Below are positions 12,611 to 44,208 of a DNA stretch of 64,000 bases, one piece after another. This stretch comes from Candidatus Berkelbacteria bacterium (GTDB taxonomy: Bacteria > Patescibacteriota > UBA1384 > XYA2-FULL-43-10 > CAINNR01). Under the pieces are notes generated by a model. The model made no database searches. It was not told where the DNA came from and saw nothing but the letters and a program-made list of their open reading frames with translations. The translations under genes were made by a program, and so were the position numbers. The DNA lies in the NCBI GenBank assembly GCA_037142675.1, contig JBAXAF010000003.1, forward strand, positions 3,717 to 67,716, read 5' to 3'. Position 1 is the first letter of the stretch; every line of letters starts with the position of its first letter.

Positions 12611-12722
12611 ATGTATATTTTTTAAAAAAAGTGGCCACCGCAGGGTCACCACAATCCACATTTATATGATAGCAAGTGAGAGAAATTTTGTCAATATGCG
12701 GGCTTATCAGCTTTTAAAGAGT

Positions 12723-14894: not shown

Positions 14895-15009
14895 AATAAT
14901 TTCTAAATCCTAATATCTAATTTAAAATAAAATTCCTAATGATTAAATTTCTAACTTGAGATTTGGTTTTTGATATTTCATTTGACATTAGTAATTCGAG
15001 ATTAGTTAT

Positions 15010-17620: not shown

Positions 17621-18912
17621 CAGTCTATCCTTTCAATCTCCGCCCCAAGAACTCGCAATCTAGTGTCCAAATTTTCGTAACCGCGATCAATATACTCGAT
17701 ATTACTGATAGTTGTAACTCCTCTGGCGCAAAGCGAAGCGATTACCAGCGCCGCGCCGCCGCGGATATCGGAAGATTCAATTTGCTGGCCGTGTAGTAGC
17801 ACTGGGCCATTTATTTCGATTAAATAAGGATTTAAAATATCAATTTTTGCGCCCATCTCAACTAACCATTTTGTGTAATCAAACCGTGAATTAAACAAGG
17901 TTTCGAATATGCGAGTTTTACCATTGGCCTGTGTGGCCAAAACTGCCAGAGGCGCTTGCAAATCGGTTGGCAGACCGGGGTACTGCCTAACATCGAGCTT
18001 GGAAGAATTTGGTGCGATGAGCTGACTGCGCTGGTTGATTACAATGTCGGCATGATCATTTTGCGTCGGAATAATATCAAAGTCGACTGACATCTCGGAA
18101 AACTTTGATAGTACTAAAGATAAATGGTCAGGAATGATATCTTTAATTTTTACTGTTCCACCGCAGACAGCGGCGGCGATCATGATTGTGCCGGCCTCTA
18201 TTCGGTCTGGCATTACTGTGTACTCCACGTCTGTTAATTTTTGGACGCCTTCAATTTTAATGGTATGAGTTCCAGCACCGGAAATTTTTGCTCCAGCTTT
18301 GTTCAAAAAATTTGCCAGGTCAACGATTTCCGGTTCGCAAGCCGCGACTTTAATAACAGTTTTCCCGCTACGTAAAACTGAAGCCATTATTATATTTTCA
18401 GTTGCTGTAACACTCATTTCAGAAAGAACAACTTCAATATCTCCTTTATGGAATTTCCCTTCTCCTTTAAGAAAAAATTTCTCTCCTTTGTCAGAAATCT
18501 CTACTGAAACGTCCATAGCCTCAAAAGCTTTTAAGTGAGTGTCTATTGGTCGTGACCCTATTAGGCAGCCTCCTGGTTCGGAGAAATGCGCACGTCCGAA
18601 TCGGGCCAACAGCGGGCCAATAATTACAACAGAACCACGAAGTTTTTTAATTGGGTTTTCATCAGGGGTGTATGATTTAACTTGGGCGGCGTCAATTATA
18701 AGGGTGTGGTCAGTATATTTAATTTGTGCTCCCAGACTCTTAATTACTTCCACCATTCTTTCGATATCAACAATTTTCGGTACATTGTGCAGAATTGTTT
18801 TACCAGGAATCATAACAGCAGCAGCCACCATTTTAAGGGCTGCGTTTTTGGCTCCGGAAACTTGAAAAGAGCCATTTAATTTGTTGCGACCTGTAATTCG
18901 AAATTTTGCCAT
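17620..18912 (-). CDS. murA: UDP-N-acetylglucosamine 1-carboxyvinyltransferase MurA.
   Basis: 430 aa EPT-fold enzyme, with the N-terminal FRITGRNKLNGSFQVSGAKNAALK motif typical of MurA. Confidence 0.88.
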   Translation of the reverse strand: MAKFRITGRNKLNGSFQVSGAKNAALKMVAAAVMIPGKTILHNVPKIVDIERMVEVIKSLGAQIKYTDHTLIIDAAQVKSYTPDENPIKKLRGSVVIIGPLLARFGRAHFSEPGGCLIGSRPIDTHLKAFEAMDVSVEISDKGEKFFLKGEGKFHKGDIEVVLSEMSVTATENIIMASVLRSGKTVIKVAACEPEIVDLANFLNKAGAKISGAGTHTIKIEGVQKLTDVEYTVMPDRIEAGTIMIAAAVCGGTVKIKDIIPDHLSLVLSKFSEMSVDFDIIPTQNDHADIVINQRSQLIAPNSSKLDVRQYPGLPTDLQAPLAVLATQANGKTRIFETLFNSRFDYTKWLVEMGAKIDILNPYLIEINGPVLLHGQQIESSDIRGGAALVIASLCARGVTTISNIEYIDRGYENLDTRLRVLGAEIERID

Positions 18913-19027
18913 AGTTTTATCCGCTTAGACCCCGAAACAAGTTCGGGATGACATAATAGTTTAGAAATCTATAATACAAATTATAGCGTCAATTTACAAT
19001 TTTATCAATACAAGCTAGAATAATTGT

Positions 19028-19756
19028 ATGAAAGAATATTTTCATAAACCACGCGACAAAAGACTAAGAGAAATTTTAATTGGTCAGGGCTCTGTTGGCA
19101 TAGTTATTATTTTAATATCAATATGCTTAGTTTTTTGGGGTTTAGGGTACAAGATCAATTGGCAAACGATGAAAATATCTCATACAGGTATTGTTTATAT
19201 ATCATTTGAACCGAATGACGCGACAGTTTTATTGTCCGGACAAGAGACAAAAGCAAAATCAACTTTTGATGCACAGTTATTGCCTGGATTTTACGATGTT
19301 GAGGTAAAAAAAGATGGATATAATACTTGGCGCCAGCATATAAAAATTACTGCTGACAAAGTTGACTGGTTCAAAAATATTACCTTATTTAAAGTTGACC
19401 CTGATATTTCTGTCATCACCGATCAAAATAGTATTAACTCAATTGACTCCCCATATGATTCCTTGGTAAAGAACCCTGAGGGCAATTTATCATTTAATGA
19501 CCATGAAATTTGGGTTGGTGACACTTTGGTCACGCGATTATCAAATCAGATTTCAGGAGTTATTTGGTACCCGGGAAATGAATATCTTGCTTACCAGCAA
19601 GGCGATGAAATTAGAATTATTGAGAAAAACGGCACTAACGATGTTTTGCTAGCAAAACTTTCAAATAGTGATAAATCCAACTTTATGTTTAGTTGGGATG
19701 GGTCATCGCTACTATATAAGGATGGCATAGTTTACCGAAGAGCAACTATTAGATAG
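19028..19756 (+). CDS. Membrane-anchored hypothetical protein with a PEGA-like domain.
   Basis: N-terminal TM helix (GIVIILISICLVFWGL). The LPGFYDVEVKKDGYNTWRQHIKI segment matches the PEGA-domain consensus. Confidence 0.5.
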   Translation: MKEYFHKPRDKRLREILIGQGSVGIVIILISICLVFWGLGYKINWQTMKISHTGIVYISFEPNDATVLLSGQETKAKSTFDAQLLPGFYDVEVKKDGYNTWRQHIKITADKVDWFKNITLFKVDPDISVITDQNSINSIDSPYDSLVKNPEGNLSFNDHEIWVGDTLVTRLSNQISGVIWYPGNEYLAYQQGDEIRIIEKNGTNDVLLAKLSNSDKSNFMFSWDGSSLLYKDGIVYRRATIR

Positions 19757-29939: not shown

Positions 29940-30016
29940 GGGCCGTTAGCTCAGTTGGCTAGAGCACTTCGCTGGCAGCGAAGGGGTCGCTGGTTCGAAT
30001 CCAGTACGGTCCACCA
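29940..30016 (+). tRNA. tRNA-Ala(GGC): tRNA-Ala, anticodon GGC, with the G3:U70 identity pair and an encoded CCA.
   Basis: GGGCCGT-TA-GCTC-AGTTGGCTA-GAGC-A-CTTCG-CTGGCAG-CGAAG-GGGTC-GCTGG-TTCGAAT-CCAGT-ACGGTCC-A-CCA. 77 nt. Confidence 0.85.
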
Positions 30017-31600
30017 CAATGACTTTGTGCCTTCAGATATAGTACTTTTATCGCTCCCAGAGTGGGAAAATGCTGGTTCTAACCTAGCATTTTTTTGTTG
30101 ATAAGATTTGGCAATTTCAGCAAACGGCTCTCGCCAAAAACGATCTCCCACACTGAGTATTCCGTTCTTCATAGTTAAGTTCTTACCTAAGGTTATCAAT
30201 ATCTCACGACGAGCCTGTTTGTCGCCATTTAGGAAGTTAATTTGAGCATAGGCAACGAACTCAACGGCTTTCTCCAATATTTCGGTACAGTTGTTAATTT
30301 TCTTCTCGGCAGTATTCAATCTCTCTATGGCCAAAGCTTTCTCTCTGTTAATTTCAACTTTTCTAGCAACATATTCATTACTATCAACAAAGCCTTCAAT
30401 TTTGGAGTCCAAAAGTCTTTTTAGTTTGTCATCACATTTTAAAACCTCGCCTTGGGCACTTTTTGTGATTAGTTCTTTCTCTCCAAATTCCTCTTCATTA
30501 GATCTTTTCAACTTATTCATGGCAAATTGCAAAAATTCGTCAGGCAGTTTTGTTTCTCCCAACCTTTCAATAATTTGTTTCTCCAACTCTGGCTCGAGTG
30601 TATTTTTCCTGTCTTGGCAATAGAAATCTCGTTTCTTGTGCGTGCAGTGGTAATAAGTATATTCTTTTGACTGCCCCGTGCTCTTAATGTCTTTAGTTTT
30701 AGTTTCGGCTGTAATGGCACAGCCACAAACTTCACACTGAACGGCACCAGTATAGGCAAAATCGCGAGTTTTGGCCCTAGTTTTTCCTCTATCGCCTAAA
30801 AACTTTTGAACGCAGTCAAACTCTTCGAGCGTAACCATTGGCTCATGAGTTGCTTTGTATTGGTTCCCTCGGTATTCTAGTCGGGCAGTATAAAAGATAT
30901 TGCTGAAAGTTTTGTAGATTAAGCTGTAACCCAGTGGCCTAGCCGAGTATTTACCTCGTGGCTTGGTTGTTAGCCCCCACTCCTTGTTGGCAATATCACA
31001 GATCTGCTGTGGATTGTAGTTGCCAGACAGCATCATTTCCCACATTTTCCTTACCAATTCAAAGCGGTCTGGATCTTTTTCAATATGAGCGCTCTTTTTG
31101 CTGTCTCTGACATTAATGTAGCCAATGGGGGCACGGCTTGGATATTCACCCTTTTCAAATTTGCTCAAAACACTGCGTGAAATGTTTGTGCTCAAATCCT
31201 TTACATACTGATTAGCCATTCCCATTTCGAGAGACATCATTACAACATTATCTTCAGGGGCGTATTCTTTTTCGAAAGTCACAATTCGCTTAATAATGCT
31301 TTCTTGTAGCAAATAGCTAATAGTGCCGGCATCAACAGGATTTCTGGCCAAACGATCTAGTTTCCAACAGATAATCCCACTAGCTTCGCCTTTTTGGATT
31401 CTTTGAATCATCTCGGCAAAGAGAGGGCGAACATATGGGTTTTTGGCTGATTTTGCCTCTTGGATAATATCAACAACCACCAAACCCTTTTCCTGGGCGA
31501 TTCGCTTCAAGAATTTGATTTGATCGGGCAACGATTCAATTTGATTGTCGCCACGATCTGTTGATTTTCGGGCATAAATGAAGAATTTTTCTTTAGTCAT
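29951..31600 (-). CDS. Large serine recombinase (resolvase-type catalytic domain, recombinase domain, zinc-ribbon/coiled-coil). The likely start is MTKEKFF at 31600; the ORF is open to 31657. Its last 66 nt read through the 3' half of tRNA-Ala.
   Basis: N-terminal IYARKSTDRGDNQ (catalytic Ser context), and C-terminal CEVCGC...YYHC zinc ribbon with coiled-coil. RBS aggaaaaataatATG. Confidence 0.8.
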   Translation of the reverse strand: MTKEKFFIYARKSTDRGDNQIESLPDQIKFLKRIAQEKGLVVVDIIQEAKSAKNPYVRPLFAEMIQRIQKGEASGIICWKLDRLARNPVDAGTISYLLQESIIKRIVTFEKEYAPEDNVVMMSLEMGMANQYVKDLSTNISRSVLSKFEKGEYPSRAPIGYINVRDSKKSAHIEKDPDRFELVRKMWEMMLSGNYNPQQICDIANKEWGLTTKPRGKYSARPLGYSLIYKTFSNIFYTARLEYRGNQYKATHEPMVTLEEFDCVQKFLGDRGKTRAKTRDFAYTGAVQCEVCGCAITAETKTKDIKSTGQSKEYTYYHCTHKKRDFYCQDRKNTLEPELEKQIIERLGETKLPDEFLQFAMNKLKRSNEEEFGEKELITKSAQGEVLKCDDKLKRLLDSKIEGFVDSNEYVARKVEINREKALAIERLNTAEKKINNCTEILEKAVEFVAYAQINFLNGDKQARREILITLGKNLTMKNGILSVGDRFWREPFAEIAKSYQQKNARLEPAFSHSGSDKSTISEGTKSLWWTVLDSNQRPLRCQRSALAN

Positions 31601-31647
31601 ATTATTTTTCCTATAAAAAAGAGAGGCAATAGCAAGAAGTTTCAAGT

Positions 31648-31714
31648 TACGACACAAGAAACGGCTACTGCCTCACTTTTACAAAAAACTTCTATTGCGT
31701 TGTCTTGTGTCGTG
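31648..31714. promoter_or_regulatory. Imperfect 16-nt inverted repeat (acgacacaagaaacgg / cgttgtcttgtgtcgtga) flanking a roughly 33-nt spacer, just upstream of the recombinase start.
   Basis: Seen directly in the recombinase 5' region, between the 69-aa ORF stop and the recombinase ATG. Confidence 0.35.
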
Positions 31715-31747
31715 ATTATATTGTATCAAATCTAGGTAATAAAGTCA

Positions 31748-31957
31748 TCATGAATTGGGCAGTTTACGAACTAAATCAACAAAGCGAATTAAACTCAAAG
31801 CGTCTTCCATTGCCTCAGCATCGGAGATGTCTTTGCCCCACTTGGCTTTGACCAAAGCTTTGTATTCAATTATGTCCGATTGAGTTAATTGCATTTTTCC
31901 TGAGCAAGGGCAGTCGGGGGAGACGGTACCCCTAGTTATTAATATGGATGAAGGCAT
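31748..31957 (-). CDS. Hypothetical small protein (69 aa), island cargo.
   Basis: ORF only. No recognisable motif. Confidence 0.3.
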   Translation of the reverse strand: MPSSILITRGTVSPDCPCSGKMQLTQSDIIEYKALVKAKWGKDISDAEAMEDALSLIRFVDLVRKLPNS

Positions 31958-31994
31958 TTGAAAAATAAAAAATGAACTGTGCCAAACCTACCCA

Positions 31995-32399
31995 TTATTT
32001 AAATCCCAGCCTTTTTTCTATTTCCTCCCTGGAAAGACCAGTTTCTCTTCGAAAAAAAGCATAAGCTTTAAGTTCTCCGACCTTGTTATACATAATGTTA
32101 TTTCTGAGTTTTTTGGTAATTCTGTAGAAATTATCTTTATTATTGGCAAATTCTGCATCAAAGGCCTCTGCGGTAGGAACTTTTTTCTTCTGAAGCTGTC
32201 CTGCTCGCCAAGCGAGTAGAAAATTATCATCAGTATCAAAATGTTTAATTGGAAACTTGCCATTGAAAGCAATTATTGAACATTCGATGTGTTTCAGGCT
32301 AGTTTTTGGATAGATCAATTTTTTCATTTTTCTCCTTTGTAATTTTTGGTTACATTGATATTTCAAAAAGTGTTGATTGACACCCCTCTTTCTCCCCAC
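31995..32399 (-). CDS. Hypothetical protein. The likely start is the internal MKKLIYPK near 32326.
   Basis: ORF only. Basic N-terminal region. Confidence 0.3.
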   Translation of the reverse strand: MGRKRGVNQHFLKYQCNQKLQRRKMKKLIYPKTSLKHIECSIIAFNGKFPIKHFDTDDNFLLAWRAGQLQKKKVPTAEAFDAEFANNKDNFYRITKKLRNNIMYNKVGELKAYAFFRRETGLSREEIEKRLGFK

Positions 32400-32626
32400 A
32401 ACAAATAATTAAATACAGATGGCTCTTTGTAGAATTGTTTTATCTCAACTCAGGAGCTTGCTTCGCTTAACATTGGGCGTCATTGTATTGACGGAGTCCA
32501 AGAGGTTCCATTCCCTGTCAGCCCGGGGATATGGTTTTAATTGATCAACATTTCAATTTAGATTTAGTGTTGACTCCCTCTGGCTATTGACGCATGCCAG
32601 ATCACTCTTGCGCTTGTTTCCAAGAA

Positions 32627-32647
32627 GTTGAACAAACAATGTTCAAC
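32627..32647 (-). terminator. Perfect 8-bp hairpin (gttgaaca-aacaa-tgttcaac) immediately 3' of the 107-aa ORF.
   Basis: Inverted repeat seen directly. Only a weak U-tract follows. Confidence 0.3.
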
Positions 32648-32670
32648 ATTCCTGTAAGCAAATAATAATG

Positions 32671-32994
32671 TTATTTTTTTCTTGCCCATCTTATTGCCAT
32701 AAAACCCTCATCAACCAGACAATCCCTAACAAAATTCTGAATTTGATTCCCTGAGCCAATTAATGAATTTTCATACCCACTATCCTTGTCGACCAACATC
32801 ACAAGATATCGATTTGTGAGCGGCTTTCCCTCACAATCCTTTGGCATATCAACGGCATTTGCCAGTCGAGCCAAGATCTTTAGCGGACTATGCTTTTTGG
32901 TGTTCAAACAGGGTCTTGGCATACCGGAAGTTTTGAACGGTCTGGAATACCCATTCGGGTCATCAACCCACTTGTCGTAAATGTTGATTTTCAT
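32671..32994 (-). CDS. Hypothetical protein (107 aa), island cargo.
   Basis: ORF only. Confidence 0.3.
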   Translation of the reverse strand: MKINIYDKWVDDPNGYSRPFKTSGMPRPCLNTKKHSPLKILARLANAVDMPKDCEGKPLTNRYLVMLVDKDSGYENSLIGSGNQIQNFVRDCLVDEGFMAIRWARKK

Positions 32995-33408
32995 TGCCGA
33001 GTCCTTTCTTTAAAGGGTTAAAAATCTTTAAGAAAATCCCATAGAACCGGGCAGAACTATGAGATTTTCTTAGCCCAGTTCCTAGTTTTTAGATGAGAAA
33101 TTGAAGAACTAATTCAGAGAACGCTGAGTACTAATCCATTAAAAAAAACCGAAAATTTACAATTTATGTAAATGCCCGGTTGTTCCGTCGACTTAATAAA
33201 TTACTAAAAGCTTACAGAAGTATGGTCTGAAAGTCAAACAACATTTAACAACAAAGAAATTTGCTATTCCTGAAGCAATCATTTGATATTTAATGTTTTT
33301 AGCTAGTATATTTCATTTTGCGAAAAAGACTTTCAATTGCTAGGACAAAGTGGTACAGTAAACACTAGAAAACATTCGGGCATGGACTAAAAATTCCCTC
33401 GGCCTATT

Positions 33409-36400
33409 TTGGTCGAGTATCTTGGCTTAATAATTTTAAAAAATATGGCTGACTATAGCCAAAAATTTGACGCAAAAGCATATTGGGCAACTAAACCGTT
33501 TTGTTCTGTTTGCAAAAATCACAAGGTGAAAAACGGAACAATTTGTTATAAATGCAAGGGAAATATGGAAAAAAACAAAATAGCTAACACAATTGAAGAG
33601 AGCTTTGATACTGAGGATGAAAAAGCTACATCATCTACTACTACCAAAATTCCTGAGAAATTCTCTCAAATAAAATTTGATAAAAGTTTTATTAAAAAAC
33701 TATTGGACAAACTAAAGGTTGGCAATGCCAGATCGATTCACCTCAACGCGGTTCCTGGTCGATCTGCTACACGATTAGACCTGCACCAGTTATCAGAAAT
33801 TGATCCTGAAATGCCACTCGATTTTATCAAAACTATATTGAACAAAGAAAGCTTCTCATTCTCTATTTCATTTGACAAAATTGATCTAGGAGAGCTGGAA
33901 GATAGTGAGAAGAAAAAACTTGTGCTTATTTCTAAAAGACTAAATGCACTTGTAATAGAAAAAGAAGATAATTTTTTGGAATTTGGTCTCAAGAATTTTG
34001 GTTTTGGTTATCCAATATTAATAAAACGTGACCAAAATGACCCAACAAAAATTATTAAAGCGCCTCTTTTCATCTGGCACTTAGACATCGAAAGATCATA
34101 TCAGAATAAAAATAACTGGACCATTAAAAAAGATGAAGATTCGCCGATCAAGATTAATGAAATACTGATCTCTCACCTCTCAAAAGATGAGTCAGTCAAA
34201 ATAGAAAAAATCTCCCAAGAAATTCTCGAAGATGGAATACTAGATGAGACCGAACTTCTAGAGATGAGTAGCAATATATTGTCGCAACTAAATTCTAAAG
34301 TTGATAATTTATCGATTAGAATAGATAAGTGTCCTGATTCGAAAGAGATTGAAGCAATCGCAAATTCTAAACCATGGATTCAATGGAGTGGAATTTTTGG
34401 GATTTATCGTTCGCAAAATGAAACAATCATCCACTCGACAGAAGAACTGCTTGAGAGATTCGATGAATTTGAAAGTGAAAAGTTGGTATTAGAGCAATTT
34501 CAAACATCCAGCATATCTGCGGTTGAAACTGACCCTAGCAAAGAAGAGATTGTTAACACATTAACGAAAGATGAAATTAAGTTAATCCAGGGGCCACCAG
34601 GAACTGGTAAAAGTCAAAGTATTACAGCTATTGTGTCTAATGCACTTGCAAACAACGCTAAATGTCTTATTGTCTGCGAAAAGAAAACGGCGCTTGATGT
34701 AATAAATGAAAATTTGAAAAAGATTGGGTTGGACAGCTACTCAATCCTTATCGACGATGTTAACAAAGACAGGAAAAAAGTCATCCAAAAAGCACGTGAT
34801 ATTAAAGAATCGCCATATTACCCGTCATTCGCGAGAAAAGATTTTGAAATTAAATATGAAAAATTTTGTGAGCTAAAAAATGATATTAATCTAAAGAGCG
34901 CTGAGACACTTCAAAAAGTTTTAGGAGATATTTCCTGGAAGCAGCTAGTCGGTTTATATTTGAAATTTTCTAAGTCGGGAGATATAGATAAAATTGCTTC
35001 AGAAATTAACTACAGCCAACTAAAATTTGACCACCAAGAATACTCTGACTACCTTGCCATGGTAGAAGAATCCGTTTTTCTTTTTGATGATTTGGAAAAA
35101 AATTCAGAGGAAGTCTTTTCCTTATTGCGCGACACATCGTTTTTAACTCCTTACCGTTCCACTGACAAAGAAAATTTAAAGGATGAAATTGAAATTATTT
35201 CTCAAATTGCAAAATCCTCTGAACAATTTCTGATCAAAAATGCACAGTCTGGTTTCGAAGAAAAAGGAATTTCGTTGTTTAAGCCGAAATCGATCGTAAA
35301 ATGCAAATTGCAATTATCTGAATTGAAACAAGCACTAAAAGAAATTATTGACTTGTATGAGGCCGGGATTAAATTAGTTGGTGATGAGTTTAACAAAAAG
35401 GGCTTGGTCCAAAATGTTAGGTACCAAGTCTCAGCTTTATTTGGCACCAAACATAAAAAAATATATGCTATCAGAAGAAAAATTCCCACATTACTAAAAA
35501 ATGCCACTCAGATTATCTCGGAATTAGAAAAGTTTGGTTTTGGAAACTTAAGCCTAAAAAAATTTGAAGCACACGAGTCGTGCAAAAGCTTAAAAAATAA
35601 TTCTATAGATACTTTAGGGGAAGTCAAAAAAATTGAATCAAAGATAGATCAAATCAAGAAAAATGAAGACGAATTAATAAGCATCTACAAAAAGTTAATG
35701 GAATCTGCAGAAAAAAAGATTTTTGACCTTGATATCAAAAGTTATATTTCCTTAGGAAATCGTGCTCAGCTAGTTAAATTCTTCAAGGACATGGGTGATG
35801 TCATCGAAAATGTTCGTTGCCATTTGGATGCTTACGAGAGTTATCATAACTGGAAATATTTTTGCAGTAATAAGAATAGTCTCGAATTACAGATTCTATC
35901 TGCACTTAAAGATTCTCCGCCAGAAAACTGGAGAAACATTTTTATTGCTTGGTATTATCGTGGAACATTACAAAATTATGAAAATACAACAAAAGTCGGA
36001 TTTCACAAGTCAAATTCTAAATTACAACAGCTATCTGGAGTCTATAATGAGCTCTGTGATTCCCAGATTCAACAAATTAAATCAAATTGGGGAAATAGCA
36101 GAAGCTACCAAATATCCAAAATTGATTATAACTTCAATACCCTATTTAGCTTGAGAAAAAACAACGCGGGGCCAAAAAGTTCGCTTAGAAAAATTATTGA
36201 CAAAGATTTTGATTTATTCACCACTTTGTTTCCAGTTATTTTAACTAACCCTGCAGCTGCAAATGCTATTTTTCCTCTCACCCAGGGATTGTTTAATATT
36301 GTCATCTTTGATGAGGCTAGCCAGTTGAGAATCTCTGACACTTTTACAAGTCTAATCCGCGGACAATATAAAATCATCGCTGGAGATGAACATCAGATGC

Positions 36401-37608
36401 CTCCTTCAAGCTATTTTCAAAGTACTGCTGAGTTGCTAGATAACCCTGAAGGAGAAGAGATTGAGTCAACTGCAGACGAAGATGAGCAAGCGGTTTTAGC
36501 TGAAAGTGAATCCTTGCTTCAATATGCCAGTGATTTAAAGAATGTGAACAAGTCGTACTTGGATTTTCACTACCGCTCAAATCATCCTGCTCTAATCGAC
36601 TTTTCAAACTGCGCTTTTTATGGAGGAAATCTGGTCCCTTTTCCACCGCAAGAAATTTACACCCCAATAGAATTCAGAGCTATCAATGGTCGTTACGAAA
36701 CTAGGACCAACCCATCAGAAGTTATCGAAATAATAAAAATCATCAAGAATGAAATTCATGCTGATCAAAAAGGTAAATACCCATCAGTTGGGATAGCCAC
36801 TTTTAACATAAACCAAAGGAATCTGATTACCGAGGCATTAAATGAATGGGCGGAAAAGGATCCATCTTTTGGCAGAAAACTTCTGGAGTTAAGGGAGTGT
36901 GGTTTGTTCGTAAAGAATTTGGAAAATATTCAAGGTGACGAAAAAGACATTATCATTATCTCAACTACTTATGGGATTCAAGAAGACGGAAGTTTTTCGC
37001 AGAATTTTGCGAGACTAAATAGAATTGAAGGCTATAAATTGCTGAATGTTCTAATTACCAGAGCTAAGCACAAACTTTATGTTTGCACTTCAATTCCAAA
37101 AGAAAAATATCTTTCTTATGCTGACATTATACAAAACGAGGGAAATAACAAAAAGGGCATTCTGTACGCCTATCTTGCATATGCCGAAGCAGTCTCAAGC
37201 CATAATACCGAATCAGCAGAAGGAATTTTAAGAACATTAAAAGAATACAGTTATGAAAAACCTAGAATTATTTCGAACTCAGATGGTCTTTCCGAGTCCC
37301 CATTTGAAGAAGAAGTCTACGAGATGCTTTGTGACCAATTCAAGGCTGAAAATGTAATCCAGCAACATAAGATTGGTGGTTTTCGCCTAGATTTTGTCAT
37401 TAAAGCAAAATCAACAGATATTGTCCTGGAATGTGACGGGAAAGCATATCATCAGTCCGAAGAAGCGTACGCTCATGACATGTACCGACAAAAGGAGCTC
37501 GAGAAACTAGGTTTTGTGGTTTACAGAATCTGGTCAACAAACTGGTTTCAAGACAAGGAAATTGAAATGCAAAAACTAGTCAGATTTGTCGAATCTAAAA
37601 GCCAGTGA
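33409..37608 (+). CDS. SF1 (DNA2/Upf1-like) helicase with an N-terminal Cys-rich region, a DUF4011-like domain and a C-terminal DUF559/Vsr-like (PD-(D/E)xK) endonuclease domain. It is a helicase-nuclease and a candidate defence protein (Hhe-like architecture). The likely start is MADYSQ at 33445.
   Basis: Walker A LIQGPPGTGKSQSITAIV, Walker B-like IVIFDEASQL, motif VI-like LNVLITRAKHKL. The C-terminal GGFRLDFVIKAKSTDIVLECDGKAYHQS...YRIWSTNWFQDKE matches the DUF559/Vsr-like endonuclease consensus. N-terminal CSVC...CYKC. Confidence 0.7.
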   Translation: MVEYLGLIILKNMADYSQKFDAKAYWATKPFCSVCKNHKVKNGTICYKCKGNMEKNKIANTIEESFDTEDEKATSSTTTKIPEKFSQIKFDKSFIKKLLDKLKVGNARSIHLNAVPGRSATRLDLHQLSEIDPEMPLDFIKTILNKESFSFSISFDKIDLGELEDSEKKKLVLISKRLNALVIEKEDNFLEFGLKNFGFGYPILIKRDQNDPTKIIKAPLFIWHLDIERSYQNKNNWTIKKDEDSPIKINEILISHLSKDESVKIEKISQEILEDGILDETELLEMSSNILSQLNSKVDNLSIRIDKCPDSKEIEAIANSKPWIQWSGIFGIYRSQNETIIHSTEELLERFDEFESEKLVLEQFQTSSISAVETDPSKEEIVNTLTKDEIKLIQGPPGTGKSQSITAIVSNALANNAKCLIVCEKKTALDVINENLKKIGLDSYSILIDDVNKDRKKVIQKARDIKESPYYPSFARKDFEIKYEKFCELKNDINLKSAETLQKVLGDISWKQLVGLYLKFSKSGDIDKIASEINYSQLKFDHQEYSDYLAMVEESVFLFDDLEKNSEEVFSLLRDTSFLTPYRSTDKENLKDEIEIISQIAKSSEQFLIKNAQSGFEEKGISLFKPKSIVKCKLQLSELKQALKEIIDLYEAGIKLVGDEFNKKGLVQNVRYQVSALFGTKHKKIYAIRRKIPTLLKNATQIISELEKFGFGNLSLKKFEAHESCKSLKNNSIDTLGEVKKIESKIDQIKKNEDELISIYKKLMESAEKKIFDLDIKSYISLGNRAQLVKFFKDMGDVIENVRCHLDAYESYHNWKYFCSNKNSLELQILSALKDSPPENWRNIFIAWYYRGTLQNYENTTKVGFHKSNSKLQQLSGVYNELCDSQIQQIKSNWGNSRSYQISKIDYNFNTLFSLRKNNAGPKSSLRKIIDKDFDLFTTLFPVILTNPAAANAIFPLTQGLFNIVIFDEASQLRISDTFTSLIRGQYKIIAGDEHQMPPSSYFQSTAELLDNPEGEEIESTADEDEQAVLAESESLLQYASDLKNVNKSYLDFHYRSNHPALIDFSNCAFYGGNLVPFPPQEIYTPIEFRAINGRYETRTNPSEVIEIIKIIKNEIHADQKGKYPSVGIATFNINQRNLITEALNEWAEKDPSFGRKLLELRECGLFVKNLENIQGDEKDIIIISTTYGIQEDGSFSQNFARLNRIEGYKLLNVLITRAKHKLYVCTSIPKEKYLSYADIIQNEGNNKKGILYAYLAYAEAVSSHNTESAEGILRTLKEYSYEKPRIISNSDGLSESPFEEEVYEMLCDQFKAENVIQQHKIGGFRLDFVIKAKSTDIVLECDGKAYHQSEEAYAHDMYRQKELEKLGFVVYRIWSTNWFQDKEIEMQKLVRFVESKSQ

Positions 37609-37621
37609 ATAGTGCAAGATT

Positions 37622-39157
37622 ATGATAAATATTTACGTTACTGCCTCAAAACTTTATGATTATATTCAGTGTCCGCATAAAGTATGGCGGGATATTTACG
37701 GTCCGCAGAATGAAAAAATTGTCGAATCCAATCCTTTCATTGAGCTACTCTGGAAAAAGGGAATCCAACATGAAAAAAGGGTTGTCTCTGGCATAGGCAG
37801 CTTTTTAGATTTGAGCCAAGGGGATCTTGATGAAAGATTTAAAAAAACCCTAGAAGCTCTCAAAAATCATACGCCGCTGATTTACCAGGGTGTGATAAAA
37901 TATGGCAACTTATTCGGCATTCCAGATTTGCTGGAGCTAATGCCGGATGGCACTTATGTACCCATTGATATAAAATCTGGGTCTGCTTATGAAGGTGAAG
38001 ATGAAGAGCAAGATGCTGAAGGTAAACCAAAGTTGCATTACGCTGTCCAGCTGTGCCTTTATAACGACGTTTTGAAAAAGCTTGGGTTTGCCAATCATAA
38101 CAATGGCCAAGTTATTGATATTCGCCTTGATAAAGATGAATACAATCTTGTTGCACCTAAAGGGACAAGAGACAAAACAACTTGGTGGGATAATTACGAG
38201 AAGATTAAAAATGATGTCTGGCTGCTACTTAATGATGAAATAAGAAACAAACCGTCATATTCAGGTAAATGTAAATTATGCCCCTGGTACAAAAGTTGTA
38301 AAAACTGGTGTCAGGAAACGAACGATTTAACCAATATCTTTAATCTTGGAAGAGCCAACCGCGATAGAATCAACGAAGATCTTGGTATAGATAATCTGAC
38401 AGATTTGATGTCGGTTGATATTCCGTCCGTGATGGAAAAAAAAGAGTTGGAAAAAAAATCGGGCGATAAGAATTTTCTATTCAGAATTTCCGATAATACC
38501 CTGGAAAAGGCAGTTGAAAGGGCTAGAGTCTCACTAATTACAAAAAAACCAGTAATCTATCAACCAGAGGTATTCCCTGATGTCAGTTATGAATTATTCT
38601 TTGATATTGAAGACGATCCAACTCAAGAATTTGTCTATCTACACGGTGTATACGAAAGGCACAATCAAGAGGAACGGTTTCTGGATTTTACTGCTAGAGA
38701 AATAAGTTCTGCAGCTGAAAAAGCTGCTTGGTCAGATTTTTGGCAATATATTGAATCACTTCCCCAAGATGACTATTCTGTATACTATTATTCACATCAC
38801 GAAAAGACAACTTACAAAAGGATGCAGAAACTGTACCCGGATGTAATTTCCGCGAAAAAACTAGAAGAGTTTTTTGACAATCCAAATGTTATCGATCTAT
38901 ATAGCGTCATTCGCTCTAAAACTAATTGGCCGCTTCCAAGTTATTCCCTAAAGGAAATCGCTGTTTACCTCGGTTTTAAATGGAGAGATGAAACGCCATC
39001 TGGCGCGCTCTCAATCCAGTGGTTCAATAATTATATTGAACAGAAAGATCCTGAAATTCTTAAGAGGATTCTGCTTTACAACGAAGACGATTGCAAAGCG
39101 ACAATGGTTATCAAGGATGCGATCGTTAATCTAGAAATAACAGAAAGGATTATATGA
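37622..39157 (+). CDS. RecB/Cas4-like PD-(D/E)xK nuclease with C-terminal Cys cluster, fused to a predicted PolB-like 3'-5' exonuclease (RNase H-like) domain. TM0106-type architecture.
   Basis: N-terminal YDYIQCPHKVW, GIPDLLE...PIDIKSG (D..E.K), CKLCPWYKSCKNWC cysteines. The C-terminal ELFFDIEDDP...VYLHGV motif is typical of RNase_H_2-like exonuclease domains. Confidence 0.6.
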   Translation: MINIYVTASKLYDYIQCPHKVWRDIYGPQNEKIVESNPFIELLWKKGIQHEKRVVSGIGSFLDLSQGDLDERFKKTLEALKNHTPLIYQGVIKYGNLFGIPDLLELMPDGTYVPIDIKSGSAYEGEDEEQDAEGKPKLHYAVQLCLYNDVLKKLGFANHNNGQVIDIRLDKDEYNLVAPKGTRDKTTWWDNYEKIKNDVWLLLNDEIRNKPSYSGKCKLCPWYKSCKNWCQETNDLTNIFNLGRANRDRINEDLGIDNLTDLMSVDIPSVMEKKELEKKSGDKNFLFRISDNTLEKAVERARVSLITKKPVIYQPEVFPDVSYELFFDIEDDPTQEFVYLHGVYERHNQEERFLDFTAREISSAAEKAAWSDFWQYIESLPQDDYSVYYYSHHEKTTYKRMQKLYPDVISAKKLEEFFDNPNVIDLYSVIRSKTNWPLPSYSLKEIAVYLGFKWRDETPSGALSIQWFNNYIEQKDPEILKRILLYNEDDCKATMVIKDAIVNLEITERII

Positions 39158-39738
39158 CTTCAATTTGCCCATATTGCAACAATGACACCGGCAAGGTAAT
39201 AACAATGAAAAAGAAATGCCCAGTTTGTACAAAAGTAATATTTGTTCGAAATGGAAAAGTTGTGACCGATGAAGAAAAATTTATTATTGATTGGCAAAAA
39301 TATATGGATTTTATGGTGCCAGATATTGAAGCTCTGAGATTTGACGTCGAAAAAACACTTAAGGCTAGATTTGGGAAAGAACCTGGCGCACCTGACTTGA
39401 TATGGGGGATGTTCAACCAAATATTATTGAAACTAAGTGACCCGTGGGACCTTTCAATTATTTATAGGAATATGGCTAAGTTTCGCCAGTCGGAAGGCAA
39501 TAAAGACGCGTATATAAAGCTGATGAAGACAGCAATGTGCTTAGAGGTAAGAGATAGTGCAGAAAAAGGGTGGGCTAATAATATTGTAATAAAAAATATA
39601 GATGATGGACTAGTTTGCGATGAGTGCAAAATTATCAATGGCAAGATCTACCCAGTCAAAGAAGCCTTAGCCAATTTCCCTTTGCCACATAATAAATGCA
39701 CTAGCGACGCGTGCAGATGCACATATTTAACCAAATAA
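39154..39738 (+). CDS. Zinc-ribbon protein (N- and C-terminal CxxC pairs), translationally coupled to the upstream nuclease (ATGA overlap).
   Basis: CPYC...CPVC at the N-terminus and CDEC...C.SDACRC at the C-terminus. 4-nt start/stop overlap. Confidence 0.45.
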   Translation: MTSICPYCNNDTGKVITMKKKCPVCTKVIFVRNGKVVTDEEKFIIDWQKYMDFMVPDIEALRFDVEKTLKARFGKEPGAPDLIWGMFNQILLKLSDPWDLSIIYRNMAKFRQSEGNKDAYIKLMKTAMCLEVRDSAEKGWANNIVIKNIDDGLVCDECKIINGKIYPVKEALANFPLPHNKCTSDACRCTYLTK

Positions 39739-39748
39739 TTTCAACTCA

Positions 39749-40996
39749 TTGAAGCAACTAAAAATTTCGGAATTAAATAAATTAATTTCTAACCAGGTTA
39801 ACAATCTGGTCAATTTGGAAGTAGAAGGTGAAATATCTGAGTGGAAGATGTTTGGTGGTAAAACATTTTACTTCAAGTTGAAAGACGAAAAATCATCCGT
39901 CTCAGCGATGACAAATATCTTTCAGTTATCTAATTGGAGGGATTTCGAAGAAGGAATGCTTGTTAGGACGACAATTTCTGTTAAGTTTAACCAATCAAAG
40001 GGCAATCTCTATGCTTGGGTTGAAGAGATGGCCCCATCAGGAGAAGGCGCTCTTAAAATCGCAATTGAAAAATTAAAAAAGCGGCTCCTTGCAGAGGGAT
40101 TATTTTCGCAAGAAAGAAAAAGATCTTTGGTCCGGTACCCCCATAAAATTGGATTAATTACTTCTCGTGATGGAGATGCCATCAAAGACTTTAAAAAGAT
40201 TATTAATGCCAGAGCAGGAGGATTGGAAATATTTTTTTACCCAGTAAGGGTTGAGGGGAAAGATTCGGTCAGGGAAATAACTGAAGCATTTACTTTTTTC
40301 AATAATTTCAAGGAATCCTTGGATGCGATTGTGATAATTCGAGGAGGTGGAAGTATCGAGAACCTCCATGCTTTCAATGATGAAAAGACGGCAAGATGTA
40401 TTGCTGGCTCGAGATTCCCTGTTGTCTGCGGGGTAGGACACGAGAATGACATTAGCTTGTGTGACTTATGTGCTGATGTAAGAGCCTCAACTCCTTCAAA
40501 TGCTGCGGAGCTTCTAGTAGAGGACCAAGTTTATACTGTTTCGATAATTAATACATCAATATCTAATATTGGTAAAAACATTAAAATCAAAATTGCTGGG
40601 GATATTCAATATCTGAGCACAATCAATATTCCGATCTCTTCAGCTCTAAAATCAGCGATTGGAAACAAAATGTCACTAATAAGAGAAATTAGTTCCACAC
40701 TCCAATATTTCAAATCAAAGTTTAAAAATATCGAGCAACAAATTAATCAATTCGTCGATTCGATAAAAAGAATAATTTCTTATAAGTTTGACTTGTCTAA
40801 CCAAAGTCTCCGCCAAACATCAGCTTTTCTAAACTCAGTAAGTCCGAAAAATATTATGTCGATGGGTTATTCAGTTGTAAAAGATGAAAAGAGACAGATA
40901 ATTAAGAGTTCCGGCCAATTAAAATTGAATTCAATTATTAATACTTATTTCTACGAAGGCTCTATCCAGGCCAAAGTTGAAAAGAAAGAGGTGTAA
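39749..40996 (+). CDS. xseA: Exodeoxyribonuclease VII large subunit.
   Basis: OB-fold N-terminus. Core motifs GLITSRDGDAIKD, IIRGGGSIENLHAFNDEKTARCIAGSRFPVVCGVGHENDISLCDLCADVRASTPSNAAE. Confidence 0.85.
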   Translation: MKQLKISELNKLISNQVNNLVNLEVEGEISEWKMFGGKTFYFKLKDEKSSVSAMTNIFQLSNWRDFEEGMLVRTTISVKFNQSKGNLYAWVEEMAPSGEGALKIAIEKLKKRLLAEGLFSQERKRSLVRYPHKIGLITSRDGDAIKDFKKIINARAGGLEIFFYPVRVEGKDSVREITEAFTFFNNFKESLDAIVIIRGGGSIENLHAFNDEKTARCIAGSRFPVVCGVGHENDISLCDLCADVRASTPSNAAELLVEDQVYTVSIINTSISNIGKNIKIKIAGDIQYLSTINIPISSALKSAIGNKMSLIREISSTLQYFKSKFKNIEQQINQFVDSIKRIISYKFDLSNQSLRQTSAFLNSVSPKNIMSMGYSVVKDEKRQIIKSSGQLKLNSIINTYFYEGSIQAKVEKKEV

Positions 40997-41203
40997 ATGC
41001 CAGAAGAAAATAGTTTTGCTAGCAAAATGGAGGAATTAGAAAAAATTAAGGCGAAGTTTGAATCAGGAAACTTCGATCTCGAGAAAGATTTGCCCTTATA
41101 CAAAAAAGCTGTCGCATTAGCAAAGGAGCTCAAAGGTCACCTTAAGAAAATTGAAAATGAAATTATTGAAATTGAGCAAAAAGATTCTGACTTGGTAGAG
41201 TAA
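40997..41203 (+). CDS. xseB: Exodeoxyribonuclease VII small subunit.
   Basis: 68-aa helical protein (FEESMEELEKI-type) immediately after xseA. Confidence 0.75.
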   Translation: MPEENSFASKMEELEKIKAKFESGNFDLEKDLPLYKKAVALAKELKGHLKKIENEIIEIEQKDSDLVE

Positions 41204-41581
41204 GTTGAAAAAAGACTCATTTTTTGAGATAATTAGCTCGTTAATTATACAATTTGTTACGCCTAAACTTTAATGAAAATTAAGGCATGGCGTTAAAACC
41301 ACATGAATAGAGATGGTCTTATGACTTGCATCATTCATGTGGTGTACGCCGGAAACGGTGTATGGAGCCCCGAAAGGGATACTTCGCTAGCTCATAAGGC
41401 CTTTTTTGTATCTTTGGGGGCAACCACCGACAAAAGTTTAGTTCTGTCTGCAAAAACACTTAAAAATGTATCAATTTGTCTCTTGATTGTTCAATTTTGT
41501 CTAACAATCTTAAAATTAGTTAATGCTGGAATGAATAAAAATATTCAATAATGCCAATAAAATGGTAGACAAGGTCAAATC

Positions 41582-41743
41582 ATGAAGAAAAATTATTGGG
41601 TTGTCGGGATTGCTACTCTAGTTCTAATTGCTGGTTGGTTTTACTGGTTTCAATTGAGACCAAGTAACGTCAGAAAAGACTGCAGTATGTGGAAAATAGA
41701 CAGAGAGTATCAGCAATGCCTGAGGGAACGAGGCATAAAGTGA
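41582..41743 (+). CDS. Small membrane/secreted peptide (53 aa). Not in the ORF track because it is under 60 aa.
   Basis: ATG with an upstream AAGG. Hydrophobic core WVVGIATLVLIAGWFYWF. Its stop overlaps a GTG start of the next ORF. Confidence 0.3.
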   Translation: MKKNYWVVGIATLVLIAGWFYWFQLRPSNVRKDCSMWKIDREYQQCLRERGIK

Positions 41744-42225
41744 AAAAACTGAGCTTAAAAAATATATATAGCAATTACAATTTCAGAGTAGTTTTTATAT
41801 TACTAACAGTCACTTTGACCATATATTTGCTGGCGAGTGCTTATGTAAAATATTTTGAGGTTGAAGAGATAGGTCATCAACATGAAAAAAATAGTTATTC
41901 AGTTCACTACTTGATTAATATTTTTCCAGAGGTTTCAGATCAACCACTGGTTGTTGACGAGATGCCCATAGTGTCTGATACAGAAAAACAGAGAGCAATA
42001 GGCTTCATTGTTAGAGATTGCGAAGAAAGTGTCTGTCCGCTTTATAGACTGATAACTGCGGAGCTGCCGTCTGGTGAAGTTATAAATTTCCAAGGAAAAA
42101 CAGGTAGTGGTGCTGTTGAATGTTACCTGAATGAATCACTAGATTTCCAATCAAAAGATGTATGTCTCGATACTAATGGCAAGGGCTGGGGGGTTCAATT
42201 AATTGAAAAGTCGACAATTAAATGA
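41689..42225 (+). CDS. Membrane-anchored hypothetical protein. The start is uncertain (ATG at 41716 or GTG at 41740).
   Basis: TM helix VVFILLTVTLTIYLLASAYV followed by a Cys-containing extracytoplasmic domain. Confidence 0.4.
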   Translation: MENRQRVSAMPEGTRHKVKKLSLKNIYSNYNFRVVFILLTVTLTIYLLASAYVKYFEVEEIGHQHEKNSYSVHYLINIFPEVSDQPLVVDEMPIVSDTEKQRAIGFIVRDCEESVCPLYRLITAELPSGEVINFQGKTGSGAVECYLNESLDFQSKDVCLDTNGKGWGVQLIEKSTIK

Positions 42226-43028
42226 GCAAACTCCAAGAGAGTAATTTTATAAAAATGTTTGGCGGCAGAACTTTTTCTTCCGAGGAAGAAATGGAAGCTT
42301 TTGTTGTTGCTAAATTGCCAAGTATTTTAGAGGTTGGAGATGGTTTTGTTGTACAACAAGATTACGCGACTGGCACCAGCGGACTACATAGCAAAAGAGC
42401 TGATATTGTCATCAAAAATTCCAGGGGAGATATTCTAGTTGTTTTTGAACTGAAAAGGAGTTACTGGCTCCGATTTGGAGATCAACGGAATAATGCGAAA
42501 CAGCAACTAATGGACTACTGCCAAAGGTTCGGTGCTCCTTATGGGGTGATACTATCTGAAAAGTATTGCTACATAATGGCCATCCACCCTGACGGTGCTT
42601 GCAAGCAAGTGTCAGCCTTACCGCCAATTCAAGAGATACAACCACGCCAGGCTATCAATTTTGGGCCTGAGATTAACAAAGCCCAAAGACAAATTTCTGT
42701 TTCGGCTGAGGCTGCCAGTCGGGAGATCCATCAGGGAATTGATGATCAAGCCAGGAAGGCCCTGAAAAAATACACGATTATTGGGATTACTCTTGTGATT
42801 CTGTTCTTCGCTGGTCTGGCTGTTTGGACTTATCAAACCAAAATGTTCACCTGTGAAAATATCAAAGGTAATATGTCCATGACTAACGGCCAGACGTCAA
42901 AGATCTACCATACAAGGGAGAGCAATTTTTATGACAAGGTAAAGATTGATACTGCTCAGGGAGATAAGGTCTTCTGCAGTGAAGCTGATGCCTTGAATGC
43001 TGGGTTTCGAAAGGCTATCAACAAGTAG
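42222..43028 (+). CDS. Restriction-endonuclease-like (PD-(D/E)xK, HsdR-N-like) domain protein with a central TM helix and a conserved C-terminal module (YHTRESNFY...FCSEADALNAGFRKA).
   Basis: RADIVIKNSRGDILVVFELKRS matches the D...(E/D)xK nuclease-fold core. TM IIGITLVILFFAGLAVW. C-terminal module of unknown function. Confidence 0.45.
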   Translation: MSKLQESNFIKMFGGRTFSSEEEMEAFVVAKLPSILEVGDGFVVQQDYATGTSGLHSKRADIVIKNSRGDILVVFELKRSYWLRFGDQRNNAKQQLMDYCQRFGAPYGVILSEKYCYIMAIHPDGACKQVSALPPIQEIQPRQAINFGPEINKAQRQISVSAEAASREIHQGIDDQARKALKKYTIIGITLVILFFAGLAVWTYQTKMFTCENIKGNMSMTNGQTSKIYHTRESNFYDKVKIDTAQGDKVFCSEADALNAGFRKAINK

Positions 43029-43152
43029 ATCAAATAATTCTAGCATTTATAGCTATAGCTTAAAATTACAGAGCTTTGCCGGTGATCTCGCAGAAGACTG
43101 GAAAAATTGGCGAAGAATAAATTTAACAGCATTAAATTGGTAGGAGTTCAAA

Positions 43153-43311
43153 ATGGTTTTCTTTATTATCTGGGTTGTAGCACTAGCTTTCATTTTGCCT
43201 GATAGCTGGGGTTGGGTGAATTATTTGTTAGGACCAATTTTGGCAATACCACTCGCTTATTTAACAGGTCTAACAATAGGATCATTATTTGCTAAATTTG
43301 ATAAAAAATGA
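43153..43311 (+). CDS. Small hydrophobic membrane protein (52 aa). Not in the ORF track.
   Basis: RBS aggag, then ATG. Two predicted TM segments. Its stop overlaps the next gene's start (ATGA). Confidence 0.35.
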   Translation: MVFFIIWVVALAFILPDSWGWVNYLLGPILAIPLAYLTGLTIGSLFAKFDKK

Positions 43312-43775
43312 CAATACACCTAGGGAAACCTGATTACAAATGCTCAAAATGCGGTGAGATTTTTTTCCCGTATAAGATTGATATTGAATGTCCTAATTGC
43401 GGAATAACTATTCCAAGCAGTGAAGCTAAAAATTATTTTGATTCAATCAAGGAAATAGCCAAGTCAATGAAGATACATAAATGCCTATACGGTAGGTTCG
43501 TTCCATGGTCTTGGTCTTATGCCAACACGGGAGACCATATTCAGGATTTACTCTTCCAACTTTTTGATTTACTTGAAGCTAAAAAACCAAAGAATGAAGA
43601 GAAATTTATAACTGAGACACTTGAAAACGATTTTGACTGGGGCGACAAGGAATATTTAAAAAAACATATTGGAAATATAGCCGTAGACCTTTTGCCTATT
43701 TATAATGGAATGATAAAAAACATCTCAGCCAAAGAAAAATTAAAAATAAATGATTCATACGGCATTCCATTTTAG
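43308..43775 (+). CDS. Hypothetical zinc-ribbon protein.
   Basis: CSKCGEIFF...CPNCG at the N-terminus. Otherwise no recognised motif. Confidence 0.35.
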   Translation: MTIHLGKPDYKCSKCGEIFFPYKIDIECPNCGITIPSSEAKNYFDSIKEIAKSMKIHKCLYGRFVPWSWSYANTGDHIQDLLFQLFDLLEAKKPKNEEKFITETLENDFDWGDKEYLKKHIGNIAVDLLPIYNGMIKNISAKEKLKINDSYGIPF

Positions 43776-43947
43776 TTCCAAGAAGAATCATCACACAGCA
43801 AAACTTTTAATTCGCATCTCTGGGATATAGACAAGTTCTTTTGATTCCATTATAATAGTTCTGACACGCAATACTGCGTTCCACCAAGAATGGGTTGTAA
43901 AGGCTAAGACGTCCCAATGGGTCGGGATCCCGTTGGTGTGGGACAAG

Positions 43948-43964
43948 TCCAGTACGGCCCACCA
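43948..43964 (+). repeat. att-like direct repeat of the tRNA-Ala 3' end (17 of 18 nt), putative island right boundary.
   Basis: tccagtacggcccacca versus tccagtacggtccacca at 29999-30016. Confidence 0.55.
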
Positions 43965-44208
43965 TGAAAAGTTCGTCATTTATGATGAGCTTTTTTGGTG
44001 GATAGGTCTGATAGAAAAAGATTTATTAATTTTAACGCCTCAATGGATTAAGCCGTAAAAAGACTTTATCGCTAAACTCGTACCTAGTTGGGGAGTGTCT
44101 CTGGAGGGATTTAGGCGGACGATTTGCATACCAACTTGGGCGAGACAAATTTAAGTGCATTACTACAAGTAAGGTATAATTAATATAAATCAAGAAAAAA
44201 CTAATTTT

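Follow-up and report, generated by a model that had tools for sequence, protein, structure and literature searches.

Serine integrases have been described as not known to target tRNA genes (PMC7192596), and the only recombinases reported to split their own gene upon integration are tyrosine recombinases of archaea (PMC8371274). Both properties are united in one family of large serine recombinases, found mostly in Patescibacteria, a member of which is described here from a stretch of 64,000 nucleotides of Candidatus Berkelbacteria bacterium (contig JBAXAF010000003.1, assembly GCA_037142675.1; this whole stretch is the window, in whose positions all coordinates are given unless a related locus is named). 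Within it, an integrated element adjoins an intact tRNA-Ala(GGC) gene, and the open reading frame (ORF) of its recombinase runs into this tRNA in antisense. An initial annotation of the window had regarded a serine recombinase at a tRNA gene as unusual in itself, which is correct, and the real arrangement is more unusual than the one it had proposed. No description of this arrangement was found in the full-text literature searched, beyond which papers could already describe it.

The ‘suicidal’ integrases of the SSV1 type (SSV1, pTN3, pT26-2) resemble the present family in that attP lies within the integrase gene, gene and attachment (att) site form a compact module (PMC8371274), and integration into a tRNA gene partitions the integrase gene to opposite ends of the element. 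Those enzymes, however, are archaeal tyrosine recombinases (SSV/Phage_integr_3), whereas that of the window is a bacterial serine recombinase; moreover, what the SSV1-type split cuts off is the catalytic C-terminal part, with loss of activity as the expected outcome, whereas here only the last 29 of 559 residues would be exchanged, and all three Pfam domains are present in a single integrated ORF of 549 amino acids (aa). With the phage-type serine integrases (A118/LI, Bxb1, phiC31, SPbeta), the family shares the Resolvase, Recombinase and zinc-ribbon domains, a long hairpin of predicted helices that would suit a coiled coil, a short identical core in attL and attR (7-8 bp here), and the position of the recombinase gene at one end of the element; on one arm, a motif of attP also recurs 5 bp nearer the centre in attB, which may correspond to the shift published for serine integrases (PMC3783163). 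It differs from them in targeting tRNA 3' ends, in the placement of attP within its own ORF, so that integration would change the protein, and in being almost absent from viral contig collections.

Classical tRNA islands and prophages (P4-like; Islander-type) likewise combine an integrase gene beside an intact tRNA with foreign cargo and tRNA fragments at the locus, but they depend on a tyrosine integrase and on the replacement of 15-50 nt of the tRNA 3' part, which appears as a flanking repeat, whereas just TCCACCA is shared here and the enzyme is a serine recombinase. Cargo elements at tRNA genes are also represented by the tycheposons of Prochlorococcus, of which 27 out of 937 have a large serine recombinase in place of the tyrosine enzyme, according to the portion of the study text considered here (10.1101/2020.12.28.424599). 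As presented in that portion, tycheposons have marine cyanobacterial hosts, mostly tyrosine recombinases and, in many cases, replication genes (a comparison with the window family by description alone), and neither an attP inside the recombinase gene nor a split gene nor a crossover at the CCA end is described in it.

The integration site and the split recombinase gene

The tRNA-Ala(GGC) gene at the integration site (29940-30016, + strand; ARAGORN; Rfam tRNA, 64.1 bits) is intact, with the G3:U70 pair, A73 and an encoded CCA end, and represents the integration target, corresponding to the B arm of attB and attL. The recombinase in its integrated form lies on the opposite strand (29951-31600, -), comprises 549 aa from its ATG and contains the domains Resolvase (residues 26-162; Pfam, 5.6e-18), Zn_ribbon_recom (26.8 bits versus a cut-off of 25.3) and Recombinase, the last with a score of 20.4 bits that is slightly below the cut-off of 21.1, yet recorded in most homologues. 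The mechanical ORF is longer (29951-31657, -; 568 aa from the first TTG), and a database copy of 100% identity (P0001) starts at the ATG. The catalytic motif Y-A-R-K-S is invariant in 24 aligned homologues. The initial annotation had noted that the ORF reads into tRNA-Ala(GGC) and ends near its 5' end, and this is confirmed by the position of the stop codon (29951-29953), as a result of which 66 nt of the tRNA are overlapped in antisense. The C-terminal residues WWTVLDSNQRPLRCQRSALAN are the antisense translation of tRNA-Ala; residues 1-530 constitute the recombinase proper, and the final 19 aa together with the stop codon are tRNA antisense.

A displaced C-terminal exon of the recombinase, encoding WW-NAVLRVRTIIMESKELVYIPEMRIKSFAV and a stop codon, is located at the opposite end of the element (43791-43886, -) and continues the reading frame of the ...KSLWW with which the body of the recombinase ends at attL. 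The two sites have an identical heptamer, TCCACCA, in common: the attL core (30010-30016, +; junction table) is the tRNA's 3' end, with its antisense, TGGTGGA, encoding the two tryptophans of the recombinase, and the attR core (43880-43886, +; repeat search and junction table) is the true far boundary. As delimited from its sequence, the element is the interval 30017-43886 (13,870 bp) between cores that agree in 7 of 7 positions. Its far end is common to four related elements, in all of which the conserved stretch starts exactly at TGGTGG/AACGCA on the recombinase strand (from 43886 down to 43791 in the window, and from positions 5160, 2179 and 561 in the related loci L001, L089 and L093, respectively). 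The elements of these three loci, each of which sits at a tRNA-Ala(TGC), measure 6.4, 9.4 and 11.0 kb. In L089 and L093, the far-end core directly adjoins a hairpin and a T-run, as expected of the tRNA's own terminator, and no longer tRNA fragment was found within the 10 kb upstream of the recombinase gene.

The consensus of the four exons, WW-NA[VIL]L[RQ]VR[TN]IIM.S.E[LY]VYIP.M[RK][IL]K..., is followed by the stop codon. Compared in pairs, the four elements have a mean identity of 78% within the exon, as against 28% just past the stop and 35% just outside the core, and the differences among the exons number 25 at first, 27 at second and 61 at third codon positions. Because conservation starts at the core and ends at the stop, and because third positions vary most, the far-end stretch bears the mark of a coding exon bounded by the core; judged by the same comparison, it is under purifying selection across the four elements. 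Further far-end exons were located by a search combining motif and core, which gave 0 matches on the control strand: one at a tRNA-Leu, in a 7.2-kb element with the core TGGTACCG (L007), and one at a tRNA-Trp, with the core TGGCAGG and in two copies (L020). There are six resolved elements with a far-end exon (window, L001, L089, L093, L007 and L020, the last counted once), and the core shared by attL and attR is 7 bp in all of them except L007, where it is 8 bp. The two exon copies of L020 (at 488 and 3080, 2.6 kb apart) are both upstream of one split recombinase, each preceded by a hairpin and a T-run, and this double exon may be a tandem array or a leftover from an earlier element.

Very probably, the serine recombinase element was inserted at the CCA end of tRNA-Ala(GGC), where it occupies 30017-43886, by means of an attP site inside its own ORF. 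This attP would lie at an invariant Trp codon (TGG, the antisense of the tRNA CCA), and the crossover would take place within the 7-bp core TGGTGGA (Trp-Trp), the antisense of the TCCACCA of the tRNA. Integration would keep the tRNA intact and split the recombinase gene, such that the 530-aa body, with the Resolvase, Recombinase and Zn_ribbon_recom domains, would stay beside the tRNA and read into its antisense to gain the tail TVLDSNQRP..., and the genuine last 29 codons would be moved 13.9 kb to the opposite end of the element. Excision would rejoin body and exon into a protein of 559 aa, and the free circle would thereby encode the full-length enzyme. We infer, rather than observe, the exact crossover dinucleotide and the current activity of the element.

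The position of the crossover is also addressed by an alignment of the junctions, in which, with the T of TGG as the start of the count, the T-loop GAAC occupies nt 21-24 in every tRNA arm. The exon/attP arms (9 of 9 sequences, from five sub-lineages) have T[TC][AG]GAAC with the GAAC at nt 26-29, where it forms part of the conserved V/I-R-T codons. In the serine integrases treated by Rutherford et al., the motif of the zinc-ribbon domain (ZD) is 5 bp nearer the crossover in attB than in attP (PMC3783163); the 5-bp shift of the TNNGAAC box between attP and attB, seen in one arm, would match this ZD spacing and would put the crossover within the core.

Directly 3' of the tRNA, a hairpin followed by a T7 run (30069-30096, +; read from the sequence) is antisense to the recombinase codons KNARLEPAF and is also present in L001 (about 11505-11540). 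It is probably an element-supplied replacement for the tRNA terminator that integration displaced, such that the same DNA appears to double as recombinase coding sequence and as terminator for the convergent tRNA, although the consensus terminator scan made no call at this hairpin. A second hairpin with a T-run, recognized by its fold and likewise without a call in the consensus scan, lies beyond the far end of the element (43967-43996, +) and is probably the chromosomal terminator that originally served the tRNA locus. The interval between the cores is compositionally foreign, with a GC content of 0.366 versus 0.393-0.409 in all 46 equal-sized flank windows and a tetranucleotide distance of 0.17 versus 0.067-0.093 in the flanks, in agreement with the impression of the initial annotation that it is richer in AT than its surroundings.

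The recombinase family and its unsplit members

A protein search returned 2,347 homologues of the window recombinase, the named ones among them from Patescibacteria metagenome-assembled genomes (MAGs). At the level of species-representative genome stretches, 582 of the first 600 pattern matches examined were confirmed as family relatives, mostly from Patescibacteria, and the related loci are overwhelmingly from bacterial Patescibacteria MAGs. C-termini such as WLRGLDSNQRP and WWTRQESNLRP, which occur in this family, are the antisense of tRNA 3' ends, the W being the antisense of CCA and the D-S-N that of the T-loop GTTCGAATC. A clear tail of this W...DSN.RP type is present in 69 of 120 homologues, and most of the others stop 2-3 residues past the W. 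The tryptophan itself (Trp529 of the window recombinase) is invariant (24 of 24 aligned homologues), and its codon, TGG, is the antisense of CCA.

The association with tRNA genes extends across the family. At 58 of 80 species-representative loci, an antisense tRNA is found exactly at the 3' end of the recombinase gene, and these 58 loci span 13 amino-acid specificities, with His and Asn the most frequent. The ORF ends within the tRNA in 52 of the 58, and, among 40 loci amenable to scoring, 36 have TGG in the frame of the recombinase; because of these proportions, the overlap of recombinase and tRNA is regarded as a systematic property of the family and not as an accident of the window. The closest relative (P0002, encoded in L001), which belongs to another genome of the same sample and abuts a tRNA-Ala(TGC), is 87% identical to the window recombinase, yet the two reside at different tRNA-Ala isoacceptors (TGC and GGC, respectively).

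In a minority of members (P0052, P0055, P0079, P0035 and a few others), the tail motif W-x6-[VI]R[TN]-x8-[IV]YIP[ED][LM] is contiguous with the gene. P0052 is encoded on two contigs of different projects, from JGI and ENA (L102 and L103), which are circularly permuted versions of one sequence, with 100% identity, and together define a 13,969-bp circle with an intact, unsplit family recombinase. The cargo of this circle comprises a Toprim-domain protein, a DEAD/ResIII helicase, an N6/N4 methyltransferase, a DUF5659 protein and a SocA_Panacea protein. Intact-tail family members are also present, with no tRNA adjacent, in two Bacteroidota-labelled contigs of 148 kb and 698 kb (L036 and L056, respectively); either their integration may have taken another route, or this branch may use a different att site. 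Scanning of viral contigs with the family alignment yielded 4 weak loci only, which provides no evidence that the elements of this family are recognised phages, and the degenerate exon pattern gave 0 matches in viral contigs.

An AlphaFold model of the intact P0052 (mean pLDDT 83.6) places the tryptophan mid-way along a C-terminal helix (residues 517-544; block-mean pLDDT 65-83, about 83 near the Trp), and because of this mid-helix position the split is seen to cut a structured element and not a disordered tail. Also present in the model are two long helices (355-402 and 408-459) that would fit a coiled coil, with two strands (473-479 and 482-487) after them. That the exchange of the tail alters what the recombinase does is speculative. 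On a more far-reaching reading, which we consider improbable in its combined form, the tail swap would be a built-in switch and the family would be retargetable to any tRNA gene that encodes its CCA. The 559-aa form, made only from the circle, would then perform attP x attB integration, and the tRNA-tailed 549-aa form would have altered directionality or activity, being either locked or competent for excision without a separate directionality factor; as regards retargeting, the DNA-binding domains would read the near-universal T-loop box and the CCA end, and small changes adjacent to the core would switch the tRNA.

Alternative boundaries and the mobility of the element

The initial annotation had proposed an element integrated at tRNA-Ala by a serine recombinase, a reading retained here, and had taken as its boundary an att-like copy of the tRNA 3' end, which corresponds to a tRNA-replacing integration with the element at 30000-43964 and the crossover within a 17-nt direct repeat. 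The repeat is real: the tRNA end TCCAGTACGGTCCACCA (30000-30016) has a same-strand counterpart, TCCAGTACGGCCCACCA, at 43948-43964, with which it agrees in 16 of 17 positions (the count of 17 of 18 given initially does not stand, the preceding base differing too), and none of 100 shuffles had a comparable match, such that chance is indeed very unlikely. Furthermore, the tRNA end of L001 is duplicated there over 18 nt without a mismatch, on the corresponding side, 6.6 kb off and about 150 nt outside the element. As a boundary, however, the repeat fails in several respects. In L089 and L093, whose recombinases and far ends are homologous, the 7-bp core is all that is shared with the tRNA end, and it is at this core that conservation begins, inward of the long repeat by 62 nt in the window and by about 150 nt in L001; since this start at TCCACCA is common to L001, L089, L093 and the window, the 17-nt copy, which lies 62 nt beyond the element end, is neither the att site nor the element boundary. 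Recombination at the 17-mer would also fail to rebuild the conserved C-terminus of the recombinase, and the single mismatch is at tRNA position 70, the U of G3:U70, where the far copy has a C, so that this identity pair would be missing if the copy were the original tRNA end. A crossover within the 17-nt repeat is accordingly given very little credence. Long direct tRNA repeats were searched for in the 58 related loci and a 3' fragment was found on the recombinase side in almost none, a near-absence that first hinted at very large elements and then at the short-core model. Still further from our expectation, and of negligible probability, is that the overlap is a gene-calling or adjacency artefact, with the recombinase serving an inversion or resolution reaction unrelated to the tRNA; the extension of ORFs across opposite-strand tRNAs is a frequent annotation artefact, but 58 of 80 independent species-level loci are alike with a fixed reading frame, and matching far-end exons and intact circular relatives exist.

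Split-gene integration at the CCA end has several observations to contend with, some of which speak for an island that arrived in the proposed manner and is now immobile, its recombinase a relic and the two gene parts a decaying pseudogene pair without regulatory meaning. An empty site in related genomes, the check suggested in the initial annotation, was looked for with only occupied sites as the result: no empty attB was found by exact-protein look-up, all 6 contigs (5 samples) that encode the neighbouring sortase also carrying the element. The predicted attB junction, ...TCCAGTACGG-TCCACCA-AGAATGGGTTGTAAAGG..., had 0 exact matches in JGI metagenome contigs, and the predicted attP junction of a circular form, ...GGCACAAAGTCATTG-TGGTGGA-ACGCAGTATTGCGTGTCAGAAC..., had 0 exact matches in a contig search. 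The genes xseAB ordinarily form a housekeeping operon and are hence odd cargo for a mobile element. Element presence in every contig of the population, xseAB aboard and the missing circular junction all suit a fixed island; against it, both gene parts are intact ORFs, the cores are identical (7/7), the exon appears to be under purifying selection in four elements, and the motifs of the catalytic domain are kept. In addition, size, cargo and tRNA target vary among the related elements, and this variation implies that the family has been mobile recently. A fixed island is possible but, in our assessment, doubtful, and the mobility of the window copy is what we infer from its intact ORFs, its identical cores and the diversity of its relatives. 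The remaining difficulties concern split-gene integration more generally: no mirror-image GAAC box was seen by eye in the other attP arm (the coding sequence before the Trp); no intact relative of more than 60% identity is present in the protein database, the intact forms being about 40% identical; the far-end exon was not seen in most of the 58 loci (10-kb flanks), such that its generality rests on the resolved elements together with the C-terminal statistics; and the tRNA-His fragments of L078, considered below, have a pattern, as if the host tRNA had been split at the anticodon, that is unexplained by integration at the CCA end.

Cargo, tRNA debris and significance

The genes between the cores are of the accessory type that the initial annotation had ascribed to them (nucleases, a helicase, small ORFs and xseAB), as borne out by Pfam. 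Upstream of the recombinase are three small ORFs of 69, 134 and 107 aa (31748-32994, -; ORF list and the gene calls of L004), the second with a weak HTH match, followed by a 1399-aa protein in which an Upf1-like helicase (DUF4011, AAA_11, AAA_12) is fused to an MTES_1575/DUF559 nuclease (33409-37608, +; Pfam). The latter matches the PADLOC models PDC-S37 (3.7e-128) and Hhe (1.5e-68) and is a candidate anti-phage defence gene. Next are a 511-aa protein with PD-(D/E)XK (Cas4-like) and RNase_H_2 domains (Pfam; PADLOC Cas4 models around 1e-8) and a 194-aa protein (together 37622-39738, +), xseA and xseB (415 and 68 aa; 39749-41203, +; Exonuc_VII_L, 1.7e-67, and Exonuc_VII_S, 2e-10), the GC content of which (0.355) is like that of the remaining element, and, after an 82-aa ORF (41303-41551), ORFs of 178, 268 (with a weak HSDR_N-like match), 52 and 155 aa (41689-43775, +; ORF list and Pfam). 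Between xseB and the following ORFs lies a LOOT RNA motif (41260-41382, +; Rfam RF03000, 69.7 bits versus a gathering score of 46.4), which overlaps the start of the 82-aa ORF and whose mobile-element context may be informative. No Phage_integrase domain was detected by Pfam in the ten largest ORFs of the interval, among which the serine recombinase is the sole recombinase, and no candidate recombination directionality factor was identified among the small ORFs of the element. A promoter-like TAGACA-17-TATAAT (11/12) inside the far-end exon, on its opposite strand and pointing outward (43828-43856, +; consensus scan), was not built on, since 1 site was seen versus 1.8 expected by chance in the region and it overlaps conserved codons.

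Outside the element, the 17-nt copy forms the end of a 73-nt tRNA-like remnant (43892-43964, +; recognized by its fold) with an acceptor-like stem, GGGUUGU/ACGGCCC, and an ACCA end, in which a G3-C70 pair is found where tRNA-Ala has G3:U70. In the reconstructed empty site, this remnant is placed 5 nt after tRNA-Ala and is followed by the hairpin and T-run; in the window, the promoter-like site of the exon (43828-43856) lies upstream of it. Its interpretation as a structured RNA or an unusual tRNA gene was set aside, there being no Rfam match at E<=10, no ARAGORN call and no canonical cloverleaf; the remnant is perhaps a relic or else a small RNA, and the 17-nt fragment may be a relic of a classical tRNA-island element. 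L001 has an inverted 10-nt T-arm fragment, read by eye, alongside its 18-nt fragment, and the 3' tRNA fragments outside the window and L001 elements look like debris of earlier events at a recombination hot spot.

Displaced 5' tRNA fragments are found on the 5' side of the tRNA in L041, L018, L078, L061, L005 and L035 (tRNA positions 1-45, 1-60, 1-34, 1-19, 1-16 and 1-20, respectively). In L041, the 7.4 kb between the tRNA and the 5' fragment (11599-19142) encodes a tyrosine integrase (HTH_17, beside the tRNA) and a PIN-domain protein, and the presence of this integrase led to the rejection, for L041, of a model in which the recombinase element brings a complete tRNA and disrupts the host copy. 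L041 has a second kind of element, of the tyrosine-integrase type, on the other side of the tRNA; if this element explains the duplication, the 5' part of the tRNA would be what is replaced, which is an unusual geometry. In L078, tRNA-His fragments 34-55 and 56-72, with an insert of 46 nt between them, lie 8.9 kb upstream of the recombinase (2635-2719), and fragment 1-34 lies 75 nt past the full tRNA (11731-11764), the two sets of fragments meeting at position 34. Downstream of the window element, a leucyl-tRNA synthetase (about 47502-50306, +; L096 13294-16098) shows a NUDIX match between its tRNA-synt_1 matches (Pfam).

The arrangement explains a recurrent oddity of annotation, in that a recombinase with a W..DSN.RP ending is one fused to tRNA antisense, and it supplies a rule for delimiting such elements in metagenome-assembled genomes, namely an orphan exon that starts with the core of the tRNA end. 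Serine integrases are widely used tools of genome engineering, and one that reads conserved tRNA features could be useful, such sites being present in every genome. For the organisms themselves, the family points to an integration hot spot at tRNA 3' ends in the small genomes of Patescibacteria and provides an example, open to testing, of an integrase with a protein sequence that would depend on the integration state of its element.

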